A DNA stretch of 64,000 bases, from positions 658-64,657 of the forward strand of contig CAZLHJ010000002.1 in the NCBI GenBank assembly GCA_964559675.1, given 5' to 3'. Under the pieces are notes generated by a model that was not told the DNA's origin, did no database searches, and was given only the letters and a program-made list of their open reading frames with translations. Origin of the DNA: Candidatus Woesearchaeota archaeon. GTDB lineage: Archaea > Nanobdellota > Nanobdellia > Pacearchaeales > GW2011-AR1. Positions 13,308 to 34,146 of this stretch are shown here, in pieces. Position 1 is the stretch's first letter, and the number at the start of each line of letters is the position of its first letter. A program made the position numbers and the translations under genes.

Positions 13308-13563
13308 GTAGGCAGGGAGTTTGCTCAAACAAAACGTAAAAGCTGACCTTTTACCTTTCTCGGTCTTGCTACCCTACAAGCACCGCTTCTCCTGTTTAGG
13401 GCTGCTCCGATCAAGGCCTGACCCGTTTCGCAGAAGCGCGATCGAATAGGACAAAACGTCAACGTCCGATAAAAGACTTTTACACTTCGTCTCACGCGCT
13501 CCTTTGAAGTCCACTTAAAGCCCACGAGTGAATAGCGCAGGGCTAACGCGCCGACTTGCCTAC
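13308..13563 (-). ncRNA. Signal recognition particle RNA (7S/SRP RNA)
   Basis: A GC-rich block in an AT-rich genome. On the minus strand, the 5' GUAGGCA pairs with the 3' UGCCUAC. Two hairpin loops carry complementary AGCCC and GGGCU, matching Alu-domain loop-loop pairing, and a UGUAA element is present. GGGUCAGGCCUUGAUCGGAGCAGCCC matches the universal helix-8 motif (compare E. coli 4.5S GGUCAGGUCCGGAAGGAAGCAGCC). The track ORF 13325..13525 is an artefact of this RNA. Confidence 0.8.
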
Positions 13564-17137: not shown

Positions 17138-18739
17138 TTAAATTTTCTCAATAAACTCTCTAACTAAATCTAAGACTTCTTTTTGTTTTCCAGGTACGAA
17201 GTTAAGAGATCCTGCGTTTTTATGTCCGCCGCCCTCTATAAATGCAGTCGGTAATTTTTCGTTAATAAATTTCATTAATTCTTGTACTGAGAAGTTAGCT
17301 TCGTCTGTTGCTCTAATCGTGATTGCAGTGCTTAAAACTCCTAATGTGACTAATTTTTTAACACCTTTTGTTTTTTGTAGATCGTCGTGAATTAGACCTA
17401 TAGCAATTCCAGGGCGAGGATAAAATCCAAATCCTGGAAAAGCTTTTTCAACGAATATTTTTTGAACGGTAACTTTTCCAACAGATTCTACTTCTGAGCC
17501 TGCTCTTGCCATCGCAATACCTTTTGCTTCTAATCTTCTAACATATGGGGCCATTAACTTAACAAGATTTTTTTGTTTTTCTTTCGGTTCTCCAAATATA
17601 ACTTCGATATATTCTCTTGCTTCCATAAACTTCAATTTTGCCGATACAAAATCTATTACTGTCGCGATATCATCTAAAAGAGATTTTGGATATCCTTGTT
17701 CTTCTGCTAATTTCAAATAACCATTTACAACTTCAGGGTTGTCGATTCTGTCTGCTAATGAGGCCATTGCAGATATTTGAGCCATATTTTCTACATCTGG
17801 ATTTATGAATCTTGCAACTTCAGTGCATAACATTCCTGCAGAAAATTGAGAACCAGATTCGCCCACTAGAAACGGATTAATATGTGCTAGAACTTCTTGA
17901 GAAATTACATCTTTATCGTATGCGTGGTGATCTATAACAATGAAATCCATTCCATGGACCTTACCTTGTTGAATTCCGAAAAGATCTTGTTCTGTAGAAC
18001 CGTTATCTGCGATGATTACGAGAGGCATTTTATTTGAGAACTTTGCGACGTTTCTTAAGGAAGTAGCAGTATCTCTAATTGAATCATCTATTTCATAAAA
18101 TGGTGCTGAGCAAGGAGCTCTAGTGTAATACTCCCATGCCGCCTTTTCAGAAGAATGTTGTTTTTCAATTAGGGGGATAATTGCTTTTTCTAATGCAAAT
18201 CCCGAGCTATATCCGTCTGCATCGTTATGGTGTCGGACGATTATAGGCCTATTTTGGATAATTGCTAATCTTATCTCTGTTGCAGCTTTTACAAATTCAT
18301 TTTTTAACTTGTCTAAAATTGGAGATTCGACCATAAATTCTGGAGGCTCAATACTTGCTCTTTCTCTTTCTATTTTTTTTAAATTTTCTAAAAATTCAGA
18401 TCTTTCTTCTGGAGATAATTTTGAAATTTGAGTAACTTCTCCCTCTAATGCATCCCTAAATTCCTCGATTACGACTTCTGCCTTTATTGTATCTCCTTCG
18501 TTGATATCAGGGTGTGCCCTAACACCTGCACCTTCAAATGCTTTGAGAGAAAGAGATCCAGTTCCATCAGATATAGTAAATACTGTTGGTCCTCCAGTTT
18601 GTTGGACTCTATCGATTACCCCGACTAATTTGAAAATTCTTCCTTTATGTGAAGCATTTATATCCTCAATATTAGCAACTTCTGCTTTTTGTTTTTGTGG
18701 AGGAGAACTCTTCTTTCCTTTATCAAATTTCTTTTTCAT
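17138..18739 (-). CDS. RecJ-like DHH/DHHA1 phosphoesterase with N-terminal OB-fold
   Basis: DHH motifs VRHHNDADGYSS, ADNG and IDHHA, and the DHHA1 motif GGGHKNAGS. The N-terminal ~100 aa look like an OB fold (IFKLVGVIDRVQQTGGPTVFTISDGTGSLSLKAFEG). Confidence 0.75.
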   Translation of the reverse strand: MKKKFDKGKKSSPPQKQKAEVANIEDINASHKGRIFKLVGVIDRVQQTGGPTVFTISDGTGSLSLKAFEGAGVRAHPDINEGDTIKAEVVIEEFRDALEGEVTQISKLSPEERSEFLENLKKIERERASIEPPEFMVESPILDKLKNEFVKAATEIRLAIIQNRPIIVRHHNDADGYSSGFALEKAIIPLIEKQHSSEKAAWEYYTRAPCSAPFYEIDDSIRDTATSLRNVAKFSNKMPLVIIADNGSTEQDLFGIQQGKVHGMDFIVIDHHAYDKDVISQEVLAHINPFLVGESGSQFSAGMLCTEVARFINPDVENMAQISAMASLADRIDNPEVVNGYLKLAEEQGYPKSLLDDIATVIDFVSAKLKFMEAREYIEVIFGEPKEKQKNLVKLMAPYVRRLEAKGIAMARAGSEVESVGKVTVQKIFVEKAFPGFGFYPRPGIAIGLIHDDLQKTKGVKKLVTLGVLSTAITIRATDEANFSVQELMKFINEKLPTAFIEGGGHKNAGSLNFVPGKQKEVLDLVREFIEKI

Positions 18740-18918
18740 ATATAGTAAATTGAAAGTGCTGTTAAAAACCTTTGCCTGTAATTTTTAGACTATTTTTTAT
18801 AAAGATTTGTTGTAATTTTTATTATTTAAAATGATTGAAAGTTTTTGTTATTGATCACAGGTTTAAGCATATAAAAAGCTTTAGCTAGCCTTAAATAGCC
18901 CTTTTTCGTCTATGAAAT

Positions 18919-19095
18919 ATGAGAAAAGTCAAAAATTCAAGAAAGAAAATCGAGGTAGAGCCTCCCCCCGAGAACAGTTTTGAAAAGATAGTTGATACTC
19001 TCCCGCATCAAATGATGCCTTTCTTAATCCTTAAAGCAGTAATGGGCGTAGCAACCAGCTTCTTTACATTATTTGCTGTAAGGAGGTTTATGTGA
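18919..19095 (+). CDS. Possible 58-aa tail-anchored membrane protein (not in the track)
   Basis: MRKVKNSRKKIEVEPPPENSFEKIVDTLPHQMMPFLILKAVMGVATSFFTLFAVRRFM. It ends 4 nt before the next ORF. Confidence 0.3.
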   Translation: MRKVKNSRKKIEVEPPPENSFEKIVDTLPHQMMPFLILKAVMGVATSFFTLFAVRRFM

Positions 19096-19099
19096 AAAG

Positions 19100-19327
19100 G
19101 TGATAGTCGATAATAGAAAATCTGGAATTTCCGACGATTATGAAGGAAGAATTGATGTTGATAAGGCACTAAATTCCCTTGGAGAACATCTGGTTTTAGA
19201 CCCTATGACTGGAAGACCTGTAAATTCAAGCTATAGAGAAGGAGTAGTTAGAAGATTAGCGGAAGAAAAGCAACAAGCAATGGATTCTAGGGGAACTAGT
19301 TATGTGCCTCCAAGATCTCAAATTTAA
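19100..19327 (+). CDS. Hypothetical protein (GTG start)
   Basis: Track ORF only; no recognisable motif. Confidence 0.35.
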   Translation: MIVDNRKSGISDDYEGRIDVDKALNSLGEHLVLDPMTGRPVNSSYREGVVRRLAEEKQQAMDSRGTSYVPPRSQI

Positions 19328-19395
19328 ATTTTATTTTTCGTGCTTATTAACACGAACCTTTGCCTTTGCTTAAACTTTCTAGTTCTGATTAAAAC

Positions 19396-19418
19396 ATTTA
19401 GCTTTATTAAAGCGAACT
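19396..19418 (+). repeat. 23-bp direct repeat ATTTAGCTTTATTAAAGCGAACT, copy 1
   Basis: Identical to 19827..19849. Confidence 0.9.
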
Positions 19419-19826
19419 CATTCAAAATCTTTAAAATTGTTTGAAGGTAGAAAGAATAAAAATTCTTAAATTAGAAAATTGGAGTGGGCAAGGTTAGAGA
19501 AAATTTAGAATATTTATTGGAAGTTATGAAGCCTTTGAGTGTTATGATGGCACTCAATTCAGTTTTTTTACTTACTCTAGTTTAGGTCTTCTTGCAATTT
19601 CGACATTTTATGGAGTAGAATCGGCCAACATGTCCCAAACACAACTATTTGCAACTTCATTAATGCATATAGGTTTAAGAGGAGGAATATATAATATATT
19701 TTCAAAAAATTCTTTGAATTATAAGAAAAAAGCAGATCAATTACAAAGAAGACAGGATTTGGCAACTAGGTGGTAATTAAAACGAACTTTCTACCTATGC
19801 TAAAAGTTTTTGTTTTTTGCATAAAG

Positions 19827-19849
19827 ATTTAGCTTTATTAAAGCGAACT
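19827..19849 (+). repeat. 23-bp direct repeat ATTTAGCTTTATTAAAGCGAACT, copy 2
   Basis: Identical to 19396..19418. It lies 42 nt upstream of the ATG at 19891. Confidence 0.9.
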
Positions 19850-19890
19850 TGTTTGGAAAAGAATATAAGTTTAGAAATTCTTGATAGTTT

Positions 19891-20145
19891 ATGAGTCTTG
19901 AAAAATTAAATCAATCTGAGTATGGAAATTTTAGAATGGTTGGAAATGAAAGCTTACCTATCTATTATGAGGTTGTAAATCCCTTAAAAAATCAGTGGAA
20001 TAGGGCTCAAAAATTAATTGATGAAAATGCACCTCAAAGAGCAACTCATTATAGGATTCCAAAAAACTCTGGAGGAGATCCGATTATAACGGATGATCTT
20101 AATGATAGAATTTTAGTTGAATATTTTATGAGAAAAAGCAGTTAA
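19891..20145 (+). CDS. Hypothetical protein
   Basis: Track ORF. A TATA-like AATATAAG lies about 25 nt upstream of the ATG, suggesting a leaderless transcript. Confidence 0.4.
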   Translation: MSLEKLNQSEYGNFRMVGNESLPIYYEVVNPLKNQWNRAQKLIDENAPQRATHYRIPKNSGGDPIITDDLNDRILVEYFMRKSS

Positions 20146-20257
20146 ATTTAGGTAGAAAAGTACCTGAAAATCTGAAATTTTTCAAAAAGAGGTCAAAAGT
20201 TCGTGTTAACCTTGTCAAAGGTTCTCTTAATGCATCTTGTGCGAACCATTGTTAAAA

Positions 20258-20512
20258 TTAATACTCATACATTTCATTCCAAGCATTTTCTGCCTTTTTT
20301 GAGAGTTTATCTGCTAAGGAAGGATTACTGCCCCTTACAATTTCTGAGCGAAACTTGTAAATGTCAGATTTTGCACAATAGTAGCTTGCCCTGTCATCTG
20401 AATCTATGTGGATTCCATTTAAAAAATCAGAATATATTTCTCTTATAGTCTTAATAGCAGCAAGATAGAAAATTTTTTTAAGACCTTCTGCTGTTTTTTT
20501 GTCGACTTCCAT
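20258..20512 (-). CDS. Hypothetical helical protein
   Basis: Track ORF. The TATA-like TTAAATAC lies about 17-24 nt upstream of the ATG. Confidence 0.4.
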   Translation of the reverse strand: MEVDKKTAEGLKKIFYLAAIKTIREIYSDFLNGIHIDSDDRASYYCAKSDIYKFRSEIVRGSNPSLADKLSKKAENAWNEMYEY

Positions 20513-20564
20513 TAGAGGTTCTAAGGTTTAGAGTATTTAATGATTATTGTAAAATATTGAGCGT

Positions 20565-20610
20565 ACTCGGCGCTTCGCGCCTCATGAAATAATAGTAGCT
20601 AATTTTTAGG
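20565..20610 (+). repeat. ~46-bp repeat with GC hairpin core, copy A
   Basis: ACTCGGCGCTTCGCGCCTCATGAAATAATAGTAGCTAATTTTTAGG. The core is GGCGC-TTC-GCGCC. Confidence 0.85.
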
Positions 20611-20743
20611 AAATTAACGCGAACTCTGGAATTTTTATATTAATTTTATGATAGAAAGTTCGTTTTATATTTATGCTGGAAGAAATTAGAAATGATAGAA
20701 AGTTTTAGCGCTGGATTTATTAAAAATAAAGAAAAAGGATAAA

Positions 20744-20965
20744 TCAATATTTTGATCTATCCATAGGAGACATTAGTTTAGATATAAGGAAAATCATCCA
20801 AATACCTGAAAGACCTACTAATAGGTAAATGATTAATTCGGCTGTTGGCCACGCTCCAAATATTAGATTTACTAAATTGAAGCCAAAAGCTACTAGTCCC
20901 CAATTAATCGCCCCTATGATTACAAGCACTGTTGCAATCCAGTCAATCGCATTTAAGTTTCTCAT
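20744..20965 (-). CDS. DUF378-type two-TM small membrane protein
   Basis: AIDWIATVLVIIGAINWGLVAFGFNLV...LLVGLSGIW matches the DUF378 pattern as I remember it. It is a paralogue of 21355..21567. Confidence 0.7.
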   Translation of the reverse strand: MRNLNAIDWIATVLVIIGAINWGLVAFGFNLVNLIFGAWPTAELIIYLLVGLSGIWMIFLISKLMSPMDRSKY

Positions 20966-21019
20966 GGAAAAAGTAATGCGTGAAGATTTATTAAAACTCG
21001 TGGTATTTTTAGAACAAAA

Positions 21020-21295
21020 TTATTTTTGTTTTTCTATTTGTTTTTCCTCTTTTTTTCTTCTCCTGAATTCAAGGTTTTGTGCCTTTTGAGAAGCTTTCCC
21101 TATGTATATAGTTACTAAGACTGCTAAAATTGTAACAACTAATGCGTATCCCCAAGGGCCACTTTTTGCTAGGAAACCTAAGGGAGCTCCTTCCTGGAAT
21201 AAAGATTGAATTGCATTATTCCATGCAAGGGCGGCTACCAACCCAAAAGCAGCAGTTGATAATGAGGCGAGTTTTTCTATAACTTCTTTTTTCAT
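21020..21295 (-). CDS. Small membrane protein with AAFGLVAALAWNNAI motif (DUF5654-like)
   Basis: Starts at the internal Met (MKKEVIEKLASLSTAAFGLVAALAWNNAIQSLF). It shares this motif with 21705..22019 and 22022..22276. Confidence 0.6.
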   Translation of the reverse strand: MKKEVIEKLASLSTAAFGLVAALAWNNAIQSLFQEGAPLGFLAKSGPWGYALVVTILAVLVTIYIGKASQKAQNLEFRRRKKEEKQIEKQK

Positions 21296-21354
21296 TTTGA
21301 TAATTAAAAGGTTAAATAAAAAGGTTAAATAAAAATAAAGGTTTTTGTCCAAAT

Positions 21355-21567
21355 TTACTTGAACAACTTAACTAATAACCATAGACCGGATAAACCTACC
21401 AATAGGTAAACTATTGCTGCTACTGCTGGCCATGATCCGAAGACTATAGCTACAAGATCCCAACTGTAATCTATAGCAGAGAAACTGTTTAATCCTACAA
21501 GGCCCCAGTTTAATGCTCCTATGATTACAAGAATAGATGCTATCCAATCAATTGCGCTTCTTTCCAT
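21355..21567 (-). CDS. DUF378-type two-TM small membrane protein
   Basis: AIDWIASILVIIGALNWGLVGLN...LLVGLSGLW. Confidence 0.7.
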   Translation of the reverse strand: MERSAIDWIASILVIIGALNWGLVGLNSFSAIDYSWDLVAIVFGSWPAVAAIVYLLVGLSGLWLLVKLFK

Positions 21568-21670
21568 TTTAAAAACCTCCTTTCATAATGATATTATTTT
21601 GAGGTTTTTGTGCTTTTTATTTGTTTTGGGTTGGTAAAAATGTGTTTAGAAAAAGAAAAACAGGTGTTGA

Positions 21671-21689
21671 GGTGTTTGGACAGGTGTTT
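21671..21689 (+). repeat. 19-mer GGTGTTTGGACAGGTGTTT, copy 1
   Basis: Exact 19-mer in the spacer between two small-membrane-protein genes. Confidence 0.9.
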
Positions 21690-21704
21690 TATCGACGATA
21701 TAGT

Positions 21705-22019
21705 TTATAGGTAGGGTTTATCTTGTAAGTATTTTGAGGTGATTAGGATAATAATAATACCTAAAATAGTCATAAATGTGGCAGTTAAAGCTTGAGATGA
21801 AAGGGCAGATTCTGCTTGATAAAAGTGAGCGAGAATAGCTTGAAAAAAGGTGAAAATAACCTCCCTCCAGACAAATGCAATTGTGAACCCGATAGTCACA
21901 ATGATTAGAAGTCGCATTTGTTTTTTGAATTCTTTTTTGTAATAGTGGCTGACCTGGAATGCGTCTGAGACTCTGTTTTTTAAAGATTTATGACTTGGAG
22001 TTATACGTCTGAATACCAT
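21705..22019 (-). CDS. Small membrane protein, paralogue of 21020..21295
   Basis: FKKQMRLLIIVTIGFTIAFVWREVIF plus a C-terminal TM segment. Confidence 0.55.
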   Translation of the reverse strand: MVFRRITPSHKSLKNRVSDAFQVSHYYKKEFKKQMRLLIIVTIGFTIAFVWREVIFTFFQAILAHFYQAESALSSQALTATFMTILGIIIILITSKYLQDKPYL

Positions 22020-22021
22020 TT

Positions 22022-22276
22022 TTATTTATCTTTTAGAATTTTAGATGTGAGAAATAAAATTATTACTGCAAAAAGAGTGATTGCTAACGCAGTTATGGAT
22101 TCTGTCAAGACAAACTCTGTTGAATTGATTATTTGTCCAATTAGATTCTGTGCAGAATTATAGATTGCATTTCTCCATGCGAAAGCTACAGTAAAACCAA
22201 TTGCTGCGATGATTGCAAGCCTTAATTGTCTCTTGAATTCTTTTTTGAAGGACTTTTTTGTCTTGAATACTTTCAT
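22022..22276 (-). CDS. Small membrane protein, paralogue of 21020..21295
   Basis: FKRQLRLAIIAAIGFTVAFAWRNAIYN plus a C-terminal TM segment. A GGTGA Shine-Dalgarno-like element lies 5 nt upstream of the ATG at 22276. The track start at 22285 is an alternative. Confidence 0.6.
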   Translation of the reverse strand: MKVFKTKKSFKKEFKRQLRLAIIAAIGFTVAFAWRNAIYNSAQNLIGQIINSTEFVLTESITALAITLFAVIILFLTSKILKDK

Positions 22277-22342
22277 TTTTATCACCTAATTTCTCTCAAA
22301 ATTGTATAAGGATAGTTGGTTTTTATATGTATTGTACGGCGC

Positions 22343-22389
22343 ACTCGGCGCTTCGCGCCTCATGGAATAATTGTGGCTAAATTTGTAAG
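22343..22389 (+). repeat. ~46-bp repeat with GC hairpin core, copy B
   Basis: ACTCGGCGCTTCGCGCCTCATGGAATAATTGTGGCTAAATTTGTAAG. The first 22 nt are identical to copy A. Confidence 0.85.
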
Positions 22390-22428
22390 ATTGTGGGGCG
22401 CGAGAGTTCGTTTAATTTTACATAAAAA

Positions 22429-22447
22429 GGTGTTTGGACAGGTGTTT
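22429..22447 (+). repeat. 19-mer GGTGTTTGGACAGGTGTTT, copy 2
   Basis: Exact copy in the divergent spacer 22286..22718. Confidence 0.9.
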
Positions 22448-22551
22448 GAAACAATTGTAAAAGATTAAAAGTTTTAGCTAAGATTAGATTAAATGAGTTT
22501 TTTAGGTGTTTTTTTATAAATTTATTTATCGTCGATAAACAGGTGTTTTGG

Positions 22552-22570
22552 GGTGTTTGGACAGGTGTTT
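22552..22570 (+). repeat. 19-mer GGTGTTTGGACAGGTGTTT, copy 3
   Basis: Exact copy in the same spacer. Confidence 0.9.
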
Positions 22571-22718
22571 TTATTAATTATAGGGGTGTTTAAAAATTAT
22601 TTTTGTTTTTTTTGTGGTGTTTGGTGGTGTTTTTTTAATCTTTTATTAAAAAACAAATTTGGTATTTTTACGGCTTCTAGTAGTAAAATTTATAAAGAAT
22701 GCTGTTTAAAATAAGAGT

Positions 22719-23327
22719 ATGTTTTTCTGGAATTCAAAAAAAAGAATTGAGAAGATTGAGGAAAATACTCAAAAAGGATTTGATTCTGTAAAAAAGGATA
22801 TGGATGTGATTGGAAAATGGATTAAACACCTTGATAGGCAAGACAAACAGGTGTTTGATATTTTAAATTCTTTAAAATTGGATTTATCGTCTATTCAAGA
22901 AGAGGTTGAAAGTTTAAGAGAAGCGGTTGATTTAATTTCTGATTCTGAAAAAAACAAACAGGTGTTTAAAAAATTGCCTGTTTTGAGTAAACAGACAGGT
23001 GTTGAAGGTGTTCAAAAAGCTGTCCAAACAGCTGTCCAAACAGACAATTTTTACGAAATTTTCAAAAACTTAAGTGGAAATGAAAAAATTTTAATTTTGG
23101 CACTCATGCAAGCGGATATGAAGTTGAGTTATGAAGATTTGTCTTTAATGTTGGGAAAAGAGAGATCAACAATAAGGGGACAAGTAAATGCGATTAAGCA
23201 GAAAAATGAGGGTTTGATTGAAGAAATTGTTGAAAAATCGGGTAAAAAAAGAGTATATATTCCTGAAGAAATTAAGGAAAAACTGTCAAAATACGCAAAA
23301 GTGAGAGTTAAAAAGAGGAAGAATTGA
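22719..23327 (+). CDS. Coiled-coil / short-repeat / C-terminal winged-helix protein (family member 1)
   Basis: N-terminal coiled coil (GFDSVKKDMDVIGKWIKHLDRQ). The centre holds KQVF and AVQT repeats. The C-terminal wHTH-like part reads LSGNEKILILALMQADMKLSYEDLSLMLGKERSTIRGQVNAIKQK. Confidence 0.6.
   Translation: MFFWNSKKRIEKIEENTQKGFDSVKKDMDVIGKWIKHLDRQDKQVFDILNSLKLDLSSIQEEVESLREAVDLISDSEKNKQVFKKLPVLSKQTGVEGVQKAVQTAVQTDNFYEIFKNLSGNEKILILALMQADMKLSYEDLSLMLGKERSTIRGQVNAIKQKNEGLIEEIVEKSGKKRVYIPEEIKEKLSKYAKVRVKKRKN
23020..23042 (-). repeat. Tandem inverted copies of the TGTTTGGACAG core inside CDS 22719..23327
   Basis: The plus strand reads CTGTCCAAACAGCTGTCCAAACA, which is the reverse complement of TGTTTGGACAG twice. 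Confidence 0.85.
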
Positions 23328-23344
23328 GGTTAAACGAACTTAAA

Positions 23345-23628
23345 ATGGCTAAAAACATGAAAAGTGAGAGTTATTCTGAAAGAAAATCGTCTAATTTTCA
23401 AGAAAAGTTACAAGAAGTGAGAGATATTTTGAGAAAATTGGATGTAATAGATAGGTGGAAAGCAGGTGTAAAAAATTTGAAAGATTTTGAATAAAAATGA
23501 TCAAAAAAAGAGAAAAAAAGCTAATAGATTGGAAGAGTTGAGTGAAAAATTCAAAAAGTGAGGGAATATTGGAAAGAGAGATCAATTTTCCTGAGGAATT
23601 GAGTGAAAAACTAGAAAGTGTGAGCTAA
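23345..23628 (+). pseudogene. Decayed third copy of the coiled-coil/wHTH family
   Basis: 23345..23494 encodes a 49-aa N-terminal fragment; LQEVRDILRKLDVIDRWKAGV resembles VKKDMDVIGKWIKHL. 23542..23628 encodes ...SEGILEREINFPEELSEKLESVS*, which resembles the member-1 C-terminus NEGLIEEIVEKSGKKRVYIPEEIKEKLS. The wHTH middle part is missing. Confidence 0.45.
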
Positions 23629-23775
23629 AGATATTTGGCTTTATATGGTCTAAAAAGCCTAAATTTGAGGCTTTTGGAGTGTTTCACAATTGGAGAAATG
23701 AAAATAGACATAATTGTAATTAGATATTCGTTTAAAAGAATAACTAAAATAAATTTTAGATAAAATAGTAATTTT

Positions 23776-24561
23776 TTATAGACTTCTGAGTTGAATTAAT
23801 GTGGGAAGAGAGACTATTTTTCTTAATGAATTCGAGAGAGATAAGAAGATTTTCTTATTATTTTCTCTGATTTTTTCTATAGGTATTCCTTTTTTTAGAA
23901 TTCTTTGTATATAATCCCGTATCGAAGACTCAGTTAGATTAAGAGTTGTTGAGAGCATTAAATAATCGACGATAAATCCTTTTTCTTCTAATTCATAGAG
24001 GGTTTGCAATACTTGCATCTCTTGATTGGTAAGCTTCTTTACTTTAGATCTGAGTTCTTTCTTAATATCATCTAAAGAGGCTAAAAATTCTGAGAGTTGG
24101 TGGAGTTTGTCCACTCGGATTTGGGCCTTATGTGTTGGAATATGTGTCGAAGAATGTGTCGAATTATAGGATTGTGCGAACTTGACCCCTTCATTTCCTG
24201 TCGAAGTGTCTGTCTGTTGGTCTGTCTGTCTGTCTGTCGAAACCCCCTTATTTCTTGTGGAAATGTCTAAATTTGAGCTTTTTACGCGTTCTAGAGGCAA
24301 ATTACCTGTCGAAGAATGTGTCGAAAGGTCTTTTTCTGTTTGATTTACTTGTTCTTGAGTTGGATTAATCTGTCGAAGTGTCTGTCTAATTGTTGGATTA
24401 TTCGTTGGATTGATTGTCTGTCTGTCTAAAGTTCGTTTTAGTTCTCTAATTTCATTTGTTAGATTAGAAATCTCTGATTGTATGTCTAGAATATCTTGTT
24501 TCACCTTTGCAAATGCGTCTTTTATAGCGTCAGCCATGTTTTTTAGAACTGACTTAAGCAT
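23776..24561 (-). CDS. Coiled-coil / short-repeat / C-terminal winged-helix protein (family member 2)
   Basis: The N-terminus AFAKVKQDILDIQSEI...TLDRQ aligns with member 1. The centre is repetitive (STHSST, DRQTDQQTD, INPT). The C-terminal part is LTNQEMQVLQTLYELEEKGFIVDYLMLSTTLNLTESSIRDYIQRILKKG. Confidence 0.6.
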   Translation of the reverse strand: MLKSVLKNMADAIKDAFAKVKQDILDIQSEISNLTNEIRELKRTLDRQTINPTNNPTIRQTLRQINPTQEQVNQTEKDLSTHSSTGNLPLERVKSSNLDISTRNKGVSTDRQTDQQTDTSTGNEGVKFAQSYNSTHSSTHIPTHKAQIRVDKLHQLSEFLASLDDIKKELRSKVKKLTNQEMQVLQTLYELEEKGFIVDYLMLSTTLNLTESSIRDYIQRILKKGIPIEKIRENNKKIFLSLSNSLRKIVSLPTLIQLRSL

Positions 24562-24642
24562 ATAAAGATTATTATAAAGAGATTATAGCTTTTAGTTGAC
24601 TTAGGAGAATAGATTTATAAACAGTTTAAAAGTTGTTTTTTT

Positions 24643-24960
24643 ATGGGAAGAGCAGTAATCTTGGTCGGAAAATTAAATCATATATCTGAGAGTTATCAGT
24701 TTATGATTGGTCTAGAGTATTCCTCAGGCATTTATATTGGTTCAGAAGATAGGGCACAATTTTACGATGAATTTTCAGATTTTATTGTTCAAAAAGTTTT
24801 GAATTTTGGTTCTAATCTCCAATTGGGGGTATTGAATGGTTGGAGAATTGGTGAAGCGGGGAATGAACGAATAGGAAAACTTGAAGAACATTTAGTTGAA
24901 AAACTTTCGGGAATTGTGAAGAGAAAGATTATAGAAAATACCTCTTCGCAATCTATATGA
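24643..24960 (+). CDS. Hypothetical protein
   Basis: Track ORF. TTTATAAA lies about 24 nt upstream of the ATG. Confidence 0.4.
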   Translation: MGRAVILVGKLNHISESYQFMIGLEYSSGIYIGSEDRAQFYDEFSDFIVQKVLNFGSNLQLGVLNGWRIGEAGNERIGKLEEHLVEKLSGIVKRKIIENTSSQSI

Positions 24961-25025
24961 AATATTACCTAGAAATACGTTAAATTGATAGACAGATTTA
25001 TATAATTTTGAGTTTGAATATAAAT

Positions 25026-25223
25026 ATGTCGGGTGAAAACTATATGGGTAGAAATGTTGAGGAAGGAAAGGGCTATGACTTTGAAGATGGAACTAGAGTT
25101 AGAACATTTACTACTGAAGAGATTAGGAATGGAAGAAGAAAGCCTGTTGAAACTTATAGATTTTGTCAGGCGATGAGACATTGGAGAGAAAGAAGTATGG
25201 ATAGCCATAGAAGATTTGATTAA
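25026..25223 (+). CDS. Hypothetical small basic protein
   Basis: The ATG at 25026 is preferred over the TTG at 25008 used by the track. No motif recognised. Confidence 0.35.
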   Translation: MSGENYMGRNVEEGKGYDFEDGTRVRTFTTEEIRNGRRKPVETYRFCQAMRHWRERSMDSHRRFD

Positions 25224-25272
25224 TTTATTCTATTTAACTAAAATTTATTAAGAGTATTGACTTGATAGAATC

Positions 25273-25485
25273 GTGTTTGAGGAAAGAGAAGATATGGATG
25301 ATTTTTATTTACCTGAAATAATTAATAGGGGGGAAGAGATTGTTTTTGAGAGTTTAGTAAACCCTGATCCTTCTTTGAGATACAGGATTATTCATGAGGG
25401 TCGTAATGACATTTATAATAAGTTGGTTGAATTAGAGGAGAATAGATCTTCTGAAAGAGTTAAACTTGATGTCTTCCTGAATTAA
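25273..25485 (+). CDS. Hypothetical protein (GTG start)
   Basis: Track ORF only. Confidence 0.3.
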   Translation: MFEEREDMDDFYLPEIINRGEEIVFESLVNPDPSLRYRIIHEGRNDIYNKLVELEENRSSERVKLDVFLN

Positions 25486-25760
25486 TTGAATTTATTTAAT
25501 TTTGAATATATTTCATATGCTTCTTTTGTAAGGGTCCAACGTTGACGTCTTTTATAGTCTAAACCTAGAGAATTTTTATTAATTTCTGAGACTAAATTCT
25601 TTTTCTTAAGATCTGATAGAATAGATTTTGTGAATTCTTCATCCCGGGCGATTTCTTGTGCAATTTTATTGGTGAATTGTGCTGAAGGAGATGTTGAAAA
25701 TAAGTAATGTAGGATTTGTTCTGAAATCTTTTGAATCTTTTGTTGAGATATTTTGGGCAT
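25482..25760 (-). CDS. Small winged-helix DNA-binding protein
   Basis: 92 aa. ISEQILHYLFSTSPSAQFTNKIAQEIARDEEFTKSILSDLKKKNLVSEI...RRQRWTLTKEAYEIY follows a helix-turn-helix plus wing pattern. Confidence 0.55.
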   Translation of the reverse strand: MPKISQQKIQKISEQILHYLFSTSPSAQFTNKIAQEIARDEEFTKSILSDLKKKNLVSEINKNSLGLDYKRRQRWTLTKEAYEIYSKLNKFN

Positions 25761-25810
25761 TTTTATAAATGATTAAGAAAGTTTATAAAAGTATTCGGTT
25801 TAATTTTTTT

Positions 25811-26110
25811 ATGAGAATTCCTGAAACTGGCAGAGCATTGAAAGGTGCAATTAGAAGGATAAAAAGAAGATATGCTCAAACAATTACTTCTGTTAGAAGA
25901 GAATATGGAGAAGAGTATCTTAAAGAAGAGAGGGGTGGAGAAAGTTATCTTAATACGAATAGATTGAACATGATTGATTTACTGAAATTAGAAGAGGATT
26001 TGGAGTTAAGAGAAGAGAGGTTATTGAGAAGAATGAGAAGATATGAAGATAGATTGGAAAGTATTAGAGAAAGAAGTATTTTTAGATTATGTTTTGATTC
26101 TGTGTTTTAA
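25811..26110 (+). CDS. Hypothetical Arg/Glu-rich protein
   Basis: Track ORF 25769..26110; the start at the internal Met is preferred. Predicted to be charged and helical. Confidence 0.35.
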   Translation: MRIPETGRALKGAIRRIKRRYAQTITSVRREYGEEYLKEERGGESYLNTNRLNMIDLLKLEEDLELREERLLRRMRRYEDRLESIRERSIFRLCFDSVF

Positions 26111-26127
26111 AGTGTTTTTTTAATCTA

Positions 26128-26142
26128 TTTATTAAAGCGAAC
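26128..26142 (+). repeat. 15-bp partial copy TTTATTAAAGCGAAC at the right edge of the island
   Basis: Matches the 3' 15 nt core of the 23-bp repeat. It lies 42 nt upstream of the lhr start. Confidence 0.8.
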
Positions 26143-26183
26143 ATTTAAAAATTGAGCCGTCGAGTATTTATTACCTATTTTTA

Positions 26184-29276: not shown

Positions 29277-29323
29277 AGTGACTTAAGGAAAAACCTTAAT
29301 AATAACTAATTTTGGGTATTTAT

Positions 29324-30058
29324 ATGAAAGCTAATAATGAGTTTGAATTTATGGGGAAATGTTTGTATGTGCCAGAGATAAAAGCATTAGTAATTGGGGA
29401 TTTGCATTTAGGATATGAAGAATTTTTGAATAGGTCTGGAATATTAATTTCTAGGCAAATGTTTGGTGAGATTTTGAAAGAGATTGGTGAGGTGATTGAT
29501 AAGATTTTAGAGAAAGGTTTGGGAATTGAGAAAATTATTTTATTAGGTGATGTTAAACATAGTTTTTCTAAAAATTTAAGACAGGAATGGAATGATGTAT
29601 TGGAGTTTTTTGATTTCTTGAGTGTTGAGAAAGGTGTTGAGAAAATAATTGTAACAAGAGGAAATCATGATAATTATTTGAAAACTATTGCTGGAAAGAG
29701 AAAAGTTGAAGTTTTAGATTATTTCATTGATAGAGAATATGCTTTTTTCCATGGTGATAAAGAATTTGTTGAAATTTATGATAAAAATATAAAATATTTT
29801 ATAGTTGGTCATGGGCATCCTGCAATTAAAATAAAAGAAGGGATTAAAGTTGAGAAATTTAAGTGTTTTTTAATTGGGGATATTGATAAAAAGAAAATCG
29901 TTATTTTGCCTAGTTTTATAGAATATAATGAAGGTAGTGATCCAAGAGAAAATGATTTGAACATGTTTAAAGAATTTAATTATGATAAGTTCGAAGTTCT
30001 AATAGTGAGTGATAATTTAGAAGTTTTGAATTTTGGTAAAATAAAGAATTTAGCTTAA
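29324..30058 (+). CDS. Binuclear metallophosphoesterase (MPE/PdeM-like, SbcD/Mre11-related)
   Basis: Motifs VIGDLHLG, LLGDVKH, RGNHD and VGHGHP appear in the canonical order. Confidence 0.75.
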   Translation: MKANNEFEFMGKCLYVPEIKALVIGDLHLGYEEFLNRSGILISRQMFGEILKEIGEVIDKILEKGLGIEKIILLGDVKHSFSKNLRQEWNDVLEFFDFLSVEKGVEKIIVTRGNHDNYLKTIAGKRKVEVLDYFIDREYAFFHGDKEFVEIYDKNIKYFIVGHGHPAIKIKEGIKVEKFKCFLIGDIDKKKIVILPSFIEYNEGSDPRENDLNMFKEFNYDKFEVLIVSDNLEVLNFGKIKNLA

Positions 30059-30782: not shown

Positions 30783-30999
30783 GATTAAATTTTAAGATGG
30801 TAAGTATATAAATATTATTGTTGGGAAAATAGAGATAATTGAGAGTTTAATATTGATGATTTTTTTATATATTGAAACGTGATTGATATTTTTGATAATA
30901 GTGTGGAATTAATAGGTATTGGGTAAGGGTAAGTGGAAAATTAATAGAAATATATTTTATTGTGAGTTTTGATGAAAATATTAAATAAAATTGAGTTAA

Positions 31000-31027
31000 C
31001 TCCCCCACCCTTGCGTTTCTTATGGAA
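31000..31027 (-). promoter_or_regulatory. ORB-like origin recognition box 1
   Basis: The minus strand reads TTCCATAAGAAACGCAAGGGTGGGGGAG, that is TTCCA...GAAA plus a G-string. Confidence 0.75.
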
Positions 31028-31080
31028 AAATAATAAACTTTAAATAAGGAAGACTTTCTTTTCTTTTTCTATTTTTCTTT

Positions 31081-31140
31081 TTTAAATATATATATTATAT
31101 ATTATATATTATATTATATATAATTATAAAGTATATGTTA
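31081..31140. other. AT-only DNA unwinding element
   Basis: TTTAAATATATATATTATATATTATATATTATATTATATATAATTATAAAGTATATG contains only two G and no C. Confidence 0.7.
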
Positions 31141-31184
31141 TAGTTCGTATTAATTTGAGACGTATTAATTTGTTATTTATTTAG

Positions 31185-31210
31185 TTCCATAAGAAGTGTA
31201 GGTGTGGGTG
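31185..31210 (+). promoter_or_regulatory. ORB-like origin recognition box 2
   Basis: TTCCATAAGAAGTGTAGGTGTGGGTG. Confidence 0.7.
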
Positions 31211-31263
31211 TAGATTTATTGTTTTTGTATTTATTCATTATTTTTCGAGGATAATTAAATAAA

Positions 31264-31289
31264 TTCCATGAGAAATAACGGTTGGTGTG
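31264..31289 (+). promoter_or_regulatory. ORB-like origin recognition box 3
   Basis: TTCCATGAGAAATAACGGTTGGTGTG. Confidence 0.6.
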
Positions 31290-31341
31290 CAGATAAGTTT
31301 ATATATGAAAATAAGTTTAACAAATTATCAAAGAGGTTGAA

Positions 31342-32547
31342 ATGGACAAATTAGATTCGATATTTAATTCTTATGTAGAAAATAAATTATTTACTAATAA
31401 GACTGTTCTTCAATCTAATTATACTCCAGACACCATCCCTCATAGAAATGCGCAAATAGAAAGTGTTGCTTCCATACTAGCTCCATCATTACGTGGAGAA
31501 AAAGTAAGTAATTTATTTGTTTATGGGAAAACTGGAAGTGGTAAGACATTAAGTGTTCAACACGTTGGAAACAGAATAAAGGAAAAGATGAAAGAACTCG
31601 GACATGATCATTTAAGATTTTTATACGTTAATTGCAAATTAAAAAAAGTTGCAGACACAGAATATAGGATTATTGCAGAGTTGATAAAAGAATTAGGCGG
31701 GAGTGTTCCAGCTACAGGTTTACCTACAGATGAGGTTTATTCAAGATTCATTGATATGGTAGATAGTAAGAAGCAAGTTATATTATTGGTATTAGATGAA
31801 ATAGATCAAGCTGTTAAGAAAATTTCAGATAATTTCATCTATACATTAACTAGAGTTAATTCAGATTTAAAAAATGCTCAGATTAGCCTGATAGGTATTA
31901 GTAACAGTTTGACATTCATGGATAATTTAGACCCTAGGGTAAAAAGTAGTTTAGGAGAAGAAGAATTAGTTTTTCCACCTTATAATGCTTTACAATTACA
32001 AGATATTTTAAGGGAGAGGGCTGAGAGTGCTTTTAAGGAAGGGATTTTACAGGAAGGAGTGTTGTCTAAATGTGCAGCATATGCTGCAAGAGAGCATGGG
32101 GATGCAAGGAGGGCTTTAGATTTACTAAGGGTAGCTGGCGAGTTAGCCGAAAGAGAGGGCAGTGAGAAAATCAAATTGGAACATATTGATATGGCTAATC
32201 AAAAAATAGAGAAAGATAAGATGTTAGATATAATTGAAAGTGAACCTACACAATTCCAACTAGTTCTTTACTCAATAATGTTATTAACAGAAAATAAAGG
32301 TAAAGATGGAATTTACACAGGAGATGTTTATAGTATGTATGAATCAATATGTAATAAAACAAAAAGTGAAATTTTAACCCAAAGAAGAGTTTCAGATATT
32401 TTATCTGAGTTTGATATGTTAGGTATAATTAATGTGAGTGTAGTAAGCAAAGGAAGACATGGAAGGACTAGAGAAATAAAGTTGATGTTAGCACCCAATA
32501 TAAAAGAAAAGGCCAAAGAAATTTTGGAAAAATCATTACATATATGA
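31342..32547 (+). CDS. cdc6: Orc1/Cdc6 replication initiator
   Basis: AAA+ Walker A YGKTGSGKT, Walker B LVLDEID, the sensor region and a C-terminal winged helix (GRHGRTREI). Confidence 0.9.
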   Translation: MDKLDSIFNSYVENKLFTNKTVLQSNYTPDTIPHRNAQIESVASILAPSLRGEKVSNLFVYGKTGSGKTLSVQHVGNRIKEKMKELGHDHLRFLYVNCKLKKVADTEYRIIAELIKELGGSVPATGLPTDEVYSRFIDMVDSKKQVILLVLDEIDQAVKKISDNFIYTLTRVNSDLKNAQISLIGISNSLTFMDNLDPRVKSSLGEEELVFPPYNALQLQDILRERAESAFKEGILQEGVLSKCAAYAAREHGDARRALDLLRVAGELAEREGSEKIKLEHIDMANQKIEKDKMLDIIESEPTQFQLVLYSIMLLTENKGKDGIYTGDVYSMYESICNKTKSEILTQRRVSDILSEFDMLGIINVSVVSKGRHGRTREIKLMLAPNIKEKAKEILEKSLHI

Positions 32548-32556
32548 GAAAACAAA

Positions 32557-34146
32557 ATGAAACAGGAAATATTAAATGTAGTAAAGGAAAAAGGTATTTT
32601 ATTAGAGAGGGATGTCTTCAATTTAGTTAATAATATAGATGACCCTAAAATAGTTAGGCAATTTTTAGAGAGTTTAGAGTTAGCTTCAACTCAAAAAATG
32701 ATTACTAAAAAATTTATTGAAAGTAATTATGATTATATGAAAGTATTTTTAGCTTCTTTAGAAGATGATAAAAAAGAAATATTCTCTAAATTTTTTAATT
32801 TTAACGAACAAAAAAAAGAAGAAAAAGAAATAGTAGTAAAAAATACGGATAAAAAAGAAGGCTTGGATTATAAAATCTTTTATGCAGACACCAAACCTGA
32901 TAAAAAAATAGATTTGAAGGATTTCGTAGGCCACTTTAGGGCGAGATATAGTGAAATTCAAAGAATTTTGATGGGACGACCTGAATTGAGTACAAATTTA
33001 GTTTCCATAAACAAAATATCAAGTGAAAGGACTAGTTTATCTATAATTGGGATTGTAACTGAGAAAAGAATCACTAAAAATAAGAATATGGTAATTAGTT
33101 TTGAAGATTTAACTGGAAAAATAGGAGGGATTGTCAAAGTAGACAATGAAGAATTATTTTCAAAGGCAGATGAATTACAATTAGATGATATTGTTGGTGT
33201 AAAGGCGTCAGGAAATAGAGATTTGCTTTTTATTCATGATATTATCTTCCCAGATGCATTTTTACACGAGAAGACTAGATTTAATGAGGATATTTCCATA
33301 GCCTTTCTTTCAGATTTACATGTTGGAAGTGATAGGCATTTAGGAAATAGTTTGAATAATTTTCTAAACTGGATAAATAGCGATGATGAGGTTGCTAGAA
33401 AAATAAAATATATTTTTTTTGTAGGAGATAATGTGGATGGGGTAGGGGTTTTCCCAGGTCAAGATAAGGTTTTGAAATTGAAAAGTATGAATGAACAATA
33501 TGGTTTATTGGCTTCTTATTTAAAGAAGATTCCAAAAAATATCACCATGTTTATGTGTCCAGGTCAGCACGATGCAACAAGAGTTCATGAGCCTCAACCA
33601 ATTATCAGTAAAAAATACGCTCCTGATTTATATGAAGTAGAAAATTTAACTTTAGTAACTAATCCTACCTTGGTTAAATTATTAGAGGGTGAAAAAGAAT
33701 TCAAGGTTTTAATGTATCATGGTGCGAGTATTCACAATTACATTAATGAAATTAAAGAGTTGAGGTTAATGAAAGCACATAGGTGTCCAGCAAAAGCAGT
33801 TAAACATATGTTGAAAAGGAGACATTTAGCATCAAGTCATGGTGTGAGTACTAGTATAGTTTATATTCCAAATGCTGAGAAAGATCCGTTAGTTATAAGT
33901 GAAGTTCCAGATGTGTTATGTACTGGAGAAGTTCATAGGTTAGATATAGAAAATTATAATGGCGTGTTGATTGTGACTGGAAGTTGTTGGCAAGCACAGA
34001 CCCCCTTTGAAGAAAAAGTCGGAAATATTCCAGATCCTTGTAAGGTTCCAGTTTTAAATTTGAAAAGTGGGGAATTGAGGATTTTCGATTTCGGAATTGA
34101 AGAAGAAATAAAAAGGAATTATAACGAAGGGAAGGAAGTAAAATGA
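32557..34146 (+). CDS. dp1: DNA polymerase D small subunit (DP1)
   Basis: Calcineurin-like phosphoesterase motifs DLHVGS, GDNVDG, GQHD, YHG and GEVH follow an OB-like region. 529 aa. Confidence 0.9.
   Translation: MKQEILNVVKEKGILLERDVFNLVNNIDDPKIVRQFLESLELASTQKMITKKFIESNYDYMKVFLASLEDDKKEIFSKFFNFNEQKKEEKEIVVKNTDKKEGLDYKIFYADTKPDKKIDLKDFVGHFRARYSEIQRILMGRPELSTNLVSINKISSERTSLSIIGIVTEKRITKNKNMVISFEDLTGKIGGIVKVDNEELFSKADELQLDDIVGVKASGNRDLLFIHDIIFPDAFLHEKTRFNEDISIAFLSDLHVGSDRHLGNSLNNFLNWINSDDEVARKIKYIFFVGDNVDGVGVFPGQDKVLKLKSMNEQYGLLASYLKKIPKNITMFMCPGQHDATRVHEPQPIISKKYAPDLYEVENLTLVTNPTLVKLLEGEKEFKVLMYHGASIHNYINEIKELRLMKAHRCPAKAVKHMLKRRHLASSHGVSTSIVYIPNAEKDPLVISEVPDVLCTGEVHRLDIENYNGVLIVTGSCWQAQTPFEEKVGNIPDPCKVPVLNLKSGELRIFDFGIEEEIKRNYNEGKEVK

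Follow-up and report, generated by a model that had tools for sequence, protein, structure and literature searches.

We analysed a stretch of 64,000 nucleotides (the window) from Candidatus Woesearchaeota archaeon (contig CAZLHJ010000002.1 of assembly GCA_964559675.1). The interval under study, positions 18740-26183, spans approximately 7.4 kb between a RecJ-like gene and the helicase gene lhr. In the annotation of the public assembly it holds 17 genes of 56-261 amino acids, in line with a preliminary description of the sequence, which had counted about 18 short open reading frames (ORFs) and had taken them for an accessory island. Our main subject is a trio of winged-helix genes in this interval, wh202, wh261 and wh92, together with the short motifs that lie beside and inside them. 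The comparisons drew on three long contigs of metagenome-assembled genomes (MAGs) and 59 metagenome loci for synteny, and on the copy of the locus in an NCBI assembly (DYHJ01000001.1, a 140-kb contig of MAG GCA_020724245.1 with approximately 31% GC).

A conserved cluster around three winged-helix genes

The trio and its conserved neighbours are arranged as follows.

17138-18739, minus strand: RecJ-like protein (GAN/Cdc45-type), left flank; Pfam OB-fold, DHH and DHHA1
20744-20965 and 21355-21567, minus strand: two DUF378 genes (Pfam 67.9 and 63.5 bits, cutoff 25)
21020-21295/21352, 21705-22019 and 22022-22285, minus strand: three DUF5654 genes (Pfam 73, 31.4 and 37.2 bits, cutoff 23.8)
22719-23327, plus strand: wh202, with a long N-terminal helix, a conserved disordered linker and a C-terminal winged helix
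23776-24561, minus strand: wh261, read as a distant wh202 paralogue, with a helix, a disordered linker and a MarR-like winged helix
25482-25760, minus strand: wh92, a small conserved winged-helix protein, recognised by weak similarity only
26184/26190-28781, plus strand: Lhr-core helicase, right flank; Pfam DEAD, Helicase_C, WH_Lhr and DEAD_assoc
29312-30058: MPE phosphoesterase (Metallophos), 3' of Lhr

The gene order is constant in approximately 50 related contigs with a wh202 identity of 45-75%. It runs from the DUF5654/DUF378 genes (minus strand) through a gene-free spacer of 0.3-1 kb to wh202 (plus), wh261 (minus) and wh92 (minus), and on to Lhr (plus), MPE (plus), o140 (minus), Orc1/Cdc6 (plus) and PolD (plus). 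In the Lhr-less lineages (L041, L050, L053, L057, L059 and L063), the trio still stands next to o140-orc1-PolD. The wh202 family has more than 2,100 homologues. The best of them reach 62-72% identity, which puts the conservation of wh202 close to that of Lhr (about 72%) and Orc1 (about 74%) and above that of the RecJ-like protein, which shows 63% identity to Pacearchaeota and Woesearchaeota MAG proteins. The family is nevertheless restricted to a lineage: a profile search retrieved 276 representatives at E<=1e-3 among 1.84 billion. For wh261 there are 739 homologues, and wh92 shows 49-71% identity in relatives, where it is divergent from Lhr.

A synteny check suggested by the preliminary description, namely whether RecJ-like and Lhr are neighbours elsewhere, turned out against the expectation of an insertion between the two. 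The RecJ-like gene never adjoins Lhr in relatives, and the winged-helix trio and the membrane-protein genes are kept. Where a RecJ-like gene is nearby at all, it lies 3.7-5 kb upstream of wh202 (L024, L026, L027 and L064). Compared with L024, L027 and L064, the RecJ-like gene of the window is inverted relative to FKBP and wh202, and therefore a rearrangement breakpoint coincides with the left edge of the interval. The RecJ-like relatives at 63% identity (L003-L005) have no neighbours in common on either side and were uninformative for synteny.

Five tiny membrane proteins had been noticed before and are indeed present, encoded by the five minus-strand genes at 20744-22285, which are internal paralogues. 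The earlier statement that no ORF belongs to a recognisable family fails here, as all five exceed the Pfam gathering thresholds for DUF378 or DUF5654. For neither family did we find anything functional in the literature. Most relatives have these genes upstream of wh202 in divergent orientation, so that the proposed association of the regulators with small membrane-protein genes is a conserved linkage.

The preliminary description had also recognised three winged-helix ORFs, and the folds bear this out for two of them. With 44 homologues as input, AlphaFold2 modelled wh202 as a helix (residues 4-78), a low-confidence segment (79-110) and a winged helix (111-197; predicted local distance difference test, pLDDT, about 85). 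The segment 79-110 has low model confidence, yet its sequence is highly conserved. Against the PDB, Foldseek gave Lrs14-like AbfR2, MarR/MepR and ArsR/SmtB as the best folds for wh202. The model of wh261 has a helix (2-49), a disordered segment (50-143) and a MarR-like winged helix (179-260; pLDDT >90). Both proteins thus have a winged helix-turn-helix (wHTH) fold, with AbfR2, MepR, MarR and SmtB as the top Foldseek matches. For wh92 there are only weak EarA-like, HTH_69 and Rrf2 matches. An alignment of the wh202 and wh261 profiles with hhalign gave a probability of 86% and an E value of 5e-6, colinear over helix, linker and wHTH; on this similarity, the two are read as distant paralogues. 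Among the weaker matches of the wh202 profile search there are also two-segment ones of 220-300 amino acids, which resemble wh261-type proteins. At the sequence level, all three genes stay below threshold with every Pfam, NCBIfam and PDB model. Membership in the MarR/Lrs14-like families finds only sub-threshold counterparts (HTH_11, Fe_dep_repress, Sta1 and Lrs14, E 0.003-0.05).

Binding-site-like motifs upstream of and inside wh202

The spacer upstream of wh202 and the gene itself carry the following features, all on the plus strand.

22286-22718: conserved gene-free spacer upstream of wh202
22426-22632: G[GC]TGTTT direct-repeat array, spacings 10-12 nt
22526-22538: TTATCGTCGATAA, in the spacer upstream of wh202
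22689-22696: TATA box upstream of wh202
22701-22707: proximal GCTGTTT, between the TATA box and the wh202 start
22844-22856 and 22955-22967: intragenic AAACAG[CG]TGTTT at KQ[LV]F, in wh202
23009-23043: GCTGTCCAAACA, two copies at AVQTAVQT, in wh202
23299-23564: AAGTGAGRG direct repeats with starts at 23299, 23362, 23415 and 23556, the first in the last wh202 codons (KVRV), the rest downstream

Approximately ten sense-strand copies of G[GC]TGTTT lie in the spacer. Over 44 loci, the density of the sense-strand motif is 11.7 per kb within 400 nt upstream of wh202 and 0.26 per kb elsewhere, a 45-fold enrichment, and the motif is present upstream of every wh202 orthologue. It is kept in relatives although the surrounding sequence has diverged. 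Clusters of at least three copies are nearly confined to this spacer and the wh202 coding sequence, with minor clusters near the DUF5654 genes in relatives. In the window, a G[GC]TGTTT pair together with ATCGACGAT lies at 21660-21700 (plus strand), between DUF5654b and DUF378b and upstream of the latter. As a candidate part of the replication origin (oriC), the motif was rejected: it is not enriched upstream of orc1, where it occurs at 0.25 per kb.

A positional profile over 33 non-redundant loci resolved the arrangement further. The TATA box falls at -40 to -21 in 26 of the 33 loci, the array occupies -190 to -70 from the wh202 start, and 12 loci have an extra site at -20 to -1, between TATA box and start codon. 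This last position is the classic one for archaeal repression. The full motif AAACAG[CG]TGTTT is a palindrome, as is typical of the operators of dimeric wHTH proteins. An operator-like palindrome thus stands at the promoter of wh202 itself and is conserved in relatives; wh202 is its presumptive binding protein.

The same motif recurs within wh202 itself, where it is written in rare codons. The peptide KQ[LV]F occurs twice in the protein and is encoded almost without exception as AAA CAG (C/G)TG TTT. Its Gln codons are CAG rather than CAA by 75:4 (background 35%), its Leu codons CTG in 31 of 35 cases (background 6%) and its Val codons GTG in 45 of 47 (background 16%). Likewise, AVQTAVQT is written GCT GTT CAA ACA twice, and at the Ala positions the amino acid varies (A, P, G) while codon bases 2 and 3 stay fixed. 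To quantify this constraint, we calculated a codon-homogeneity score for each column in 17 matched loci and called columns with a score above 5 hot. There were 15 hot columns among the 202 of wh202 and 16 among the 261 of wh261, whereas the controls had a single one each (Lhr, 1 of 865; MPE, 1 of 248; wh92, 1 of 92). Three further hot spots belong to other motifs: TTATCGTCGATA at S57-S58 of wh202, which is also found in the spacer and at codons 196-200 of wh261; TTAAAACGAACT at LKRT of wh261, with the rare codon CGA; and AAAGTGAGAG at KVRV of wh202, where the GTG codon is fixed and which recurs 1-3 times in the 250 nt downstream. In 558 kb of loci, AAGTGAGRG has 115 sense and 7 antisense matches and takes the same position in approximately 45 loci; 98 of the 113 sense matches in loci with a wh202 orthologue lie within -60 to +300 of the wh202 3' end. 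The locus has other conserved motifs as well, namely TTATCG[AT]CGATAA and (ACAG)n; TTAAACGAACTT is a further candidate binding site.

From these positions we infer a circuit in which wh202 would form a coiled-coil dimer with a MarR/Lrs14-like winged helix and would bind the half-site G[GC]TGTTT, with AAACAG[CG]TGTTT as the palindromic form. Its predicted sites would then stand at -190 to -70 of its own start, once between TATA box and start, and again in its own coding sequence, and wh202 would regulate itself through the promoter array and the intragenic sites. It probably also controls the divergent membrane-protein genes. The preliminary suggestion that DNA-binding proteins lie here with their cognate repeats thus receives strong support from the phylogenetic footprint as far as wh202 is concerned. 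Autoregulated regulators of the MarR/Lrs14 type, such as Sulfolobus acidocaldarius AbfR2 (PDB 6cmv), offer the closest likeness: their wHTH is the best Foldseek match, and they share the palindromic operator at their own promoter, including a site between TATA box and start codon. Unlike them, wh202 and wh261 have an extra N-terminal helix of 50-75 residues and a conserved disordered linker, match no Pfam, NCBIfam or PDB sequence at threshold, and have predicted operators also within the coding sequence.

Alternatively, the embedded motifs might act in RNA rather than DNA, through mRNA structure, protein sites on the transcript or translational control. Such a role would account for the strand bias (230 versus 51 for G[GC]TGTTT, and that of AAGTGAGRG), and some copies lie in the probable 3' untranslated region of wh202. 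However, the main array, being upstream of the TATA box, is probably untranscribed, the full motif has the symmetry of a DNA operator, the element in wh261 described below matches a DNA site known to bind Cdc6/Orc1, and Rfam has no match here. We regard action at the RNA level as very improbable.

A probable origin recognition box in wh261 and the predicted origin upstream of orc1

A second set of elements lies in the linker-coding DNA of wh261 and upstream of orc1/cdc6.

24241-24262, minus strand: element 1 resembling an origin recognition box (ORB), TTCCACAAGAAATAAGGGGGTT, in wh261 linker-coding DNA
24185-24204, minus strand: ORB-like element 2, TCGACAGGAAATGAAGGGGT, in wh261 linker-coding DNA
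30990-31341: predicted oriC region, directly upstream of orc1/cdc6
31001-31027, minus strand: ORB(-)
approximately 31085-31135: (TA)n unwinding element
31185 and 31264, plus strand: ORB(+) copies
31342-32547: orc1/cdc6, Pfam Cdc6 domains

The two elements in wh261 are separated by an (ACAG)n tract. The wh261 ORB reads TTTCCACTGGAAATGAAGGGGTT, and its consensus over 46 wh261 orthologues is TTTCCAnnnGAAAT-GAA-GGGGTT or, written out, (A)TTTCCA-nnn-GAAAT-GAA-GGGG-TT and then an (ACAG)n or (CCAA)n tract. It coincides with the strongest synonymous constraint in the gene, at codons 100-118: S101 is TCC in 44 of 44 cases (background 7%), G106 is GGG in 44 of 46 (background 21%), D110, D114 and D118 are GAC (background 21%), and every Thr codon is ACA. 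The ORB dyad core, TTCCA-n(1-3)-(T)GGAAA, is found as TTTCCAnnnGAAAT in the 46 orthologues, and the G-rich string 3' of the dyad is an invariant GGGG at a fixed spacing. In the core, 16 of 17 bases are identical to the Pyrococcus ORB1 oligonucleotide, which is bound by Cdc6 in vitro and reads GTTCCAGTGGAAATGAA...GGGGGG (PMC1904270). In most loci orc1 lies 1.7-7 kb from the wh261 ORB; in L045-L047 the ORB is kept and orc1 is not within 10 kb. By its sequence, then, the wh261 element is a bona fide-looking archaeal ORB.

An ORB inside a gene has a precedent. In Thermococcales, Cdc6 occupies in vivo an ORB cluster that lies within the coding gene dp1 (Matsunaga et al. 2007, PMC1904270). The wh261 element resembles archaeal ORB/mini-ORB sites, this cluster included, in its dyad core (TTCCA-n-TGGAAAT-GAA, then a G-string), in lying within a few kb of orc1/cdc6 and inside a protein-coding gene, and in its conservation across genomes. 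Unlike the dp1 cluster, it lies in the disordered-linker codons of a winged-helix gene upstream of orc1 and is usually a single copy followed by (ACAG)n or (CCAA)n, and its binding by Orc1 is a prediction. The ORB-coding DNA falls in a segment predicted to be disordered, which would explain why the protein tolerates it.

The arrangement of an AT-rich element between inverted ORBs is absent from the wh261 copies, which are single or direct repeats, and is found at 31.0-31.3 kb, 6.8 kb from the wh261 ORB to the AT-rich element. The layout recurs in ten relatives, which have inverted ORBs in front of orc1, a single ORB within wh261 and hardly any other G-string ORBs, or none. Of the 15 loci examined, most, the window among them, have no G-string ORBs beyond the wh261 element except the inverted copies on either side of the AT-rich element upstream of orc1. 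From its sequence, the region at 30990-31341 looks like a textbook canonical archaeal oriC, with an ORB, a DNA unwinding element (DUE) and a further ORB in succession. The preliminary description had not drawn any link to a replication origin.

Could the wh202-wh261 region itself be an origin, either a second chromosomal one or the relic of an integrated plasmid? The G[GC]TGTTT copies would then be iterons, wh202 or wh261 the initiator, and the ORB a recruiter of Orc1. Direct repeats phased 10-12 nt apart, an ORB 1.5 kb away, the switch of gene orientation at the locus and the retention of the wh261 ORB where orc1 is not within 10 kb all fit this idea. We consider it unlikely nonetheless: there is no AT-rich element flanked by inverted ORBs here while a textbook one lies upstream of orc1, no ATPase, helicase or Rep domain was detected in wh202 or wh261, and all relatives carry the locus fixed in their chromosome, so that it is not a recent plasmid. 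Skew in GC content at third codon positions (GC3) was uninformative on this question.

A centromere-like, segregation or chromatin-organising site near the origin, at which the wHTH paralogues bridge or coat DNA along the arrays, seems rather improbable to us, too. The long N-terminal helices of wh202 and wh261 would suit oligomerisation, the direct repeats of the arrays are in phase and share one helical face, their position beside oriC is conserved, and wh202 is unusually conserved for a transcription factor. On the other hand, the cluster has no partition NTPase (ParA or SegA), the motif clusters are nearly confined to one locus, and the site between TATA box and start codon fits ordinary repression.

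Overall, we read the interval as a composite whose backbone is a conserved regulatory cluster close to the origin, comprising a wHTH protein that regulates itself and a satellite site for Orc1, with a probability of roughly 60%. Orc1/Cdc6 probably binds inside wh261, at the ORB in the linker-coding DNA. This would either couple the expression of wh261 to initiator occupancy or provide a satellite, titrating initiator site beside the origin. The idea of titration or regulation comes from initiator sites that lie near but outside an origin, as do the downstream ORB cluster of Haloarcula hispanica oriC2, which negatively regulates that origin, and E. coli datA (reviewed in PMC4010727). The haloarchaeal cluster differs in being intergenic and in having several copies, and the wh261 site is known from sequence. 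Proteins other than the initiator can also recognise a specific motif at an archaeal origin, as UBP with ucm does at Sulfolobus oriC1 (PMC12141716). The fold of UBP, a saddle-shaped beta-hairpin DNA binder, is unrelated to that of the winged-helix proteins, and its motif lies between the origin's own ORBs.

Several points weigh against this composite reading. The binding of the motifs by wh202 and Orc1 is deduced from sequence, and the sequence comes from the MAG of an uncultivated organism. Instead of wh202, the protein that occupies the array could be wh261, wh92 or a further factor. The wh261 ORB, single or a direct repeat, flanks no unwinding element and so is not a complete origin, and GC and GC3 skew is positive on the plus strand on both sides with no switch of sign, which does not point to either ORB cluster as the active one. 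Kinship among the orthologues inflates the codon statistics, although the matched control genes argue against kinship as the cause. The model leaves AAGTGAGRG, TTATCG[AT]CGATAA, TTAA(N)NCGAAC and (ACAG)n unexplained, and the sense-strand bias of some motifs could point to a role in RNA.

A more specific proposal goes further and is correspondingly tentative. The coding sequences of wh202 and wh261 may double as a cis-regulatory platform beside oriC, wh202 with its own operators and wh261 with an ORB. The platform might serve a DPANN-specific circuit that couples initiator occupancy, and with it replication initiation, to the expression of origin-associated DNA-binding proteins, or it might be a satellite site for initiator titration or segregation.

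Strain-specific inserts and the meaning of the locus

The remaining features of the interval are short ORFs and repeats.

18919-19095, plus strand: o58, strain-specific ORF without a family match
19100-19327, plus strand: o75, strain-specific ORF without a family match
19345-19420 and 19775-19850, plus strand: two direct repeats of approximately 75 nt, bracketing about 355 nt without a long ORF
19891-20145, plus strand: o84a, strain-specific ORF
20258-20512, minus strand: o84b, strain-specific ORF
20561-20606 and 22339-22384, plus strand: copies 1 and 2 of a 46-nt GC-rich repeat with a GGCGC-TTC-GCGCC hairpin, 89% identity
23324-23494: o56, a doubtful ORF overlapped by the AAGTGAGRG repeats
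24643-24960, plus strand: o105, in the insert separating wh261 from wh92
25008-25223, plus strand: o71, in the same insert
25273-25485, plus strand: o70, in the same insert
25811-26110, plus strand: o113, called as 99 amino acids, Arg/Glu-rich and strain-specific, between wh92 and Lhr

These ORFs fall into two insert zones, one at 18.9-20.7 kb between recJ and the membrane-protein genes, the other at 24.6-26.1 kb, where it breaks up a run of wh261, wh92 and lhr that is uninterrupted in relatives. For o58, o75, o84a, o84b, o105, o71, o70 and o113, tblastn found no match in the 59 related loci, in which the o56 protein is not conserved either; these eight ORFs, or nine with o56, which is probably also strain-specific, really are strain-specific. 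In addition, o105 has no homologue among 5.8 billion proteins (an ORFan), o84a has no relative in IMG/VR, and nine concatenated short ORFs gave no tblastn match in 50,697 phage genomes. A weak similarity links o84b and o105 (36% over 39 amino acids, E 0.004 in a tiny database). The decayed paralogue that had been suspected here did not materialise: positions 19420-19790 show no similarity to o84a, o75, o58, o84b or o105. In the NCBI copy, the stretch at L001 3919-4178, corresponding to window positions of approximately 24562-24642, holds a 10-N scaffold gap and a duplicated wh261-upstream stretch, and an o70-like gene fragment abuts the wh261 start. These differences suggest strain-level indel variation of the o105/o71 block. 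In L006-L008, the 10 kb upstream of wh202 hold other small genes (MscL, DUF3096 and DUF4383) between FKBP/RecJ and wh202, as well as ParE/DUF7557 and DUF2283/DUF4258 toxin-antitoxin pairs. Throughout the lineage, this position is hypervariable and occupied by small genes.

The short-repeat families described earlier are real and locally enriched. TTAAARCGAAC has 12 matches in the window versus 4.1 expected, 9 of the 12 in the interval; ACAGGTGTTT has 13 versus 3.4 expected, 10 of them at 21660-23035; the 46-nt repeat and the TGTC-type repeats, the latter within wh261 (ORF 23776-24561), are present as well. Each of the two direct repeats of approximately 75 nt holds two TTAA(N)NCGAAC boxes about 60 nt apart. 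In the extended form TTAA(N)NCGAAC(TT), this box is intergenic, depleted in ORFs and recurrent in relatives (window 19347-26142; L006-L065), where sites lie just 3' of the wh202 stop, within wh261 (LKRT) and throughout the small-gene zones. A modest enrichment is seen in the 80 nt that follow stop codons (31% versus 11%); as a promoter the box was rejected, having no preferred distance to downstream start codons. The 46-nt repeat is part of a duplicated spacer of approximately 200 nt, was found in none of the related loci and is genome-specific. A 13-nt tandem repeat, AATAAAAAGGTTA (2.6 copies, 21302-21335), lies directly 5' of the called DUF5654a start and may be a duplicated promoter element.

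How much of the accessory island survives? A horizontally acquired island, or a self-contained effector module between recJ-like and lhr, would agree with the many ORFans and with the long spacers, which the preliminary description had pointed out: the coding density is 68%, versus 92% in the 9.9 kb that adjoin recJ on its other side (from the gene table). By tetranucleotide profile the interval is the most deviant 7.4-kb window, the NCBI assembly is heterogeneous beside wh261, recJ is inverted relative to relatives, and 20-nt inverted repeats (19777-19796 and 20190-20209, 85% complementary, containing a CGAAC box) stand on either side of o84a. Against this, 9 of the 17 genes keep their family and order in approximately 50 relatives (the five membrane-protein genes, wh202, wh261 and wh92, with Lhr as the conserved neighbour). 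The proposed composition check also went the other way, since GC is 0.29-0.34, equal to the flanks, and the tetranucleotide deviation peaks in the conserved repeat-rich core while the two variable blocks lie at the window median.

Nor does the interval have the machinery or the targets of integrated elements, in agreement with what had been noted before. None of the 17 ORFs matches an integrase, recombinase or transposase in Pfam, PHROGs or NCBIfam, and no phage or known defence family was found with these or with PADLOC, which gave only weak wHTH-type matches; for the non-membrane ORFs, nothing in the four collections rises above threshold. A regular repeat-spacer (CRISPR) array is absent from the interval, no direct repeat brackets it as an att target would, there is no tRNA in the 64-kb window, and Rfam gives zero matches in the interval even at E<=1. 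Genomic islands and integrated elements are thus like this interval in low coding density, ORFans, short repeats and a position between conserved genes, and unlike it in recombinase, tRNA/att target, foreign composition and the conservation of its core. For the core, the island reading is already refuted, and for the interval as a whole we consider it quite unlikely. The term accessory fails for the centre and the right part, where the order is kept, and holds for the eight or nine strain-specific ORFs.

Elsewhere in the window and the related loci, we noted a few other features. An SRP (signal recognition particle) RNA at 13308-13563 (minus strand) of this archaeal genome is matched only by the bacterial large-SRP model, at 62.5 versus a threshold of 60 bits. 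The PolD large-subunit ORF at 34143-39035 has 1,630 amino acids versus approximately 1,140-1,150 in the relatives L006 and L008, and likely contains an intein or another insertion. In L033 (4908-8894), the Lhr match is split into two pieces approximately 1.4 kb apart, which suggests that the gene is disrupted or holds an inserted intein or mobile element. A reverse-transcriptase (RVT_1) gene lies beside ArgRS at L007 42-788.

For island-calling in compact genomes, the locus is a caution: low coding density and repeats would mark a regulatory hub here, not foreign DNA. ORBs and autoregulated wHTH proteins are kinds of element already known. What is new is their combination in a DPANN gene trio that is conserved and unannotated, with predicted binding sites inside the coding sequences. 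To our knowledge, the DPANN archaea are uncultivated and genome-reduced, and their replication control is essentially unstudied. Two predictions can be addressed in vitro with no need of cultivation, namely the binding of Orc1 to the wh261 ORB and that of wh202 to AAACAG[CG]TGTTT. The locus would pin the replication origin of a Pacearchaeota-like lineage to the ORB-DUE-ORB arrangement upstream of orc1, and it ties to that origin a winged-helix trio of which the wh202 family, with its more than 2,100 members, has no Pfam model. Within this trio, predicted binding-site motifs appear to be kept inside coding sequence through selection on synonymous codons, and one of them would be a textbook initiator site in the DNA of a disordered linker.

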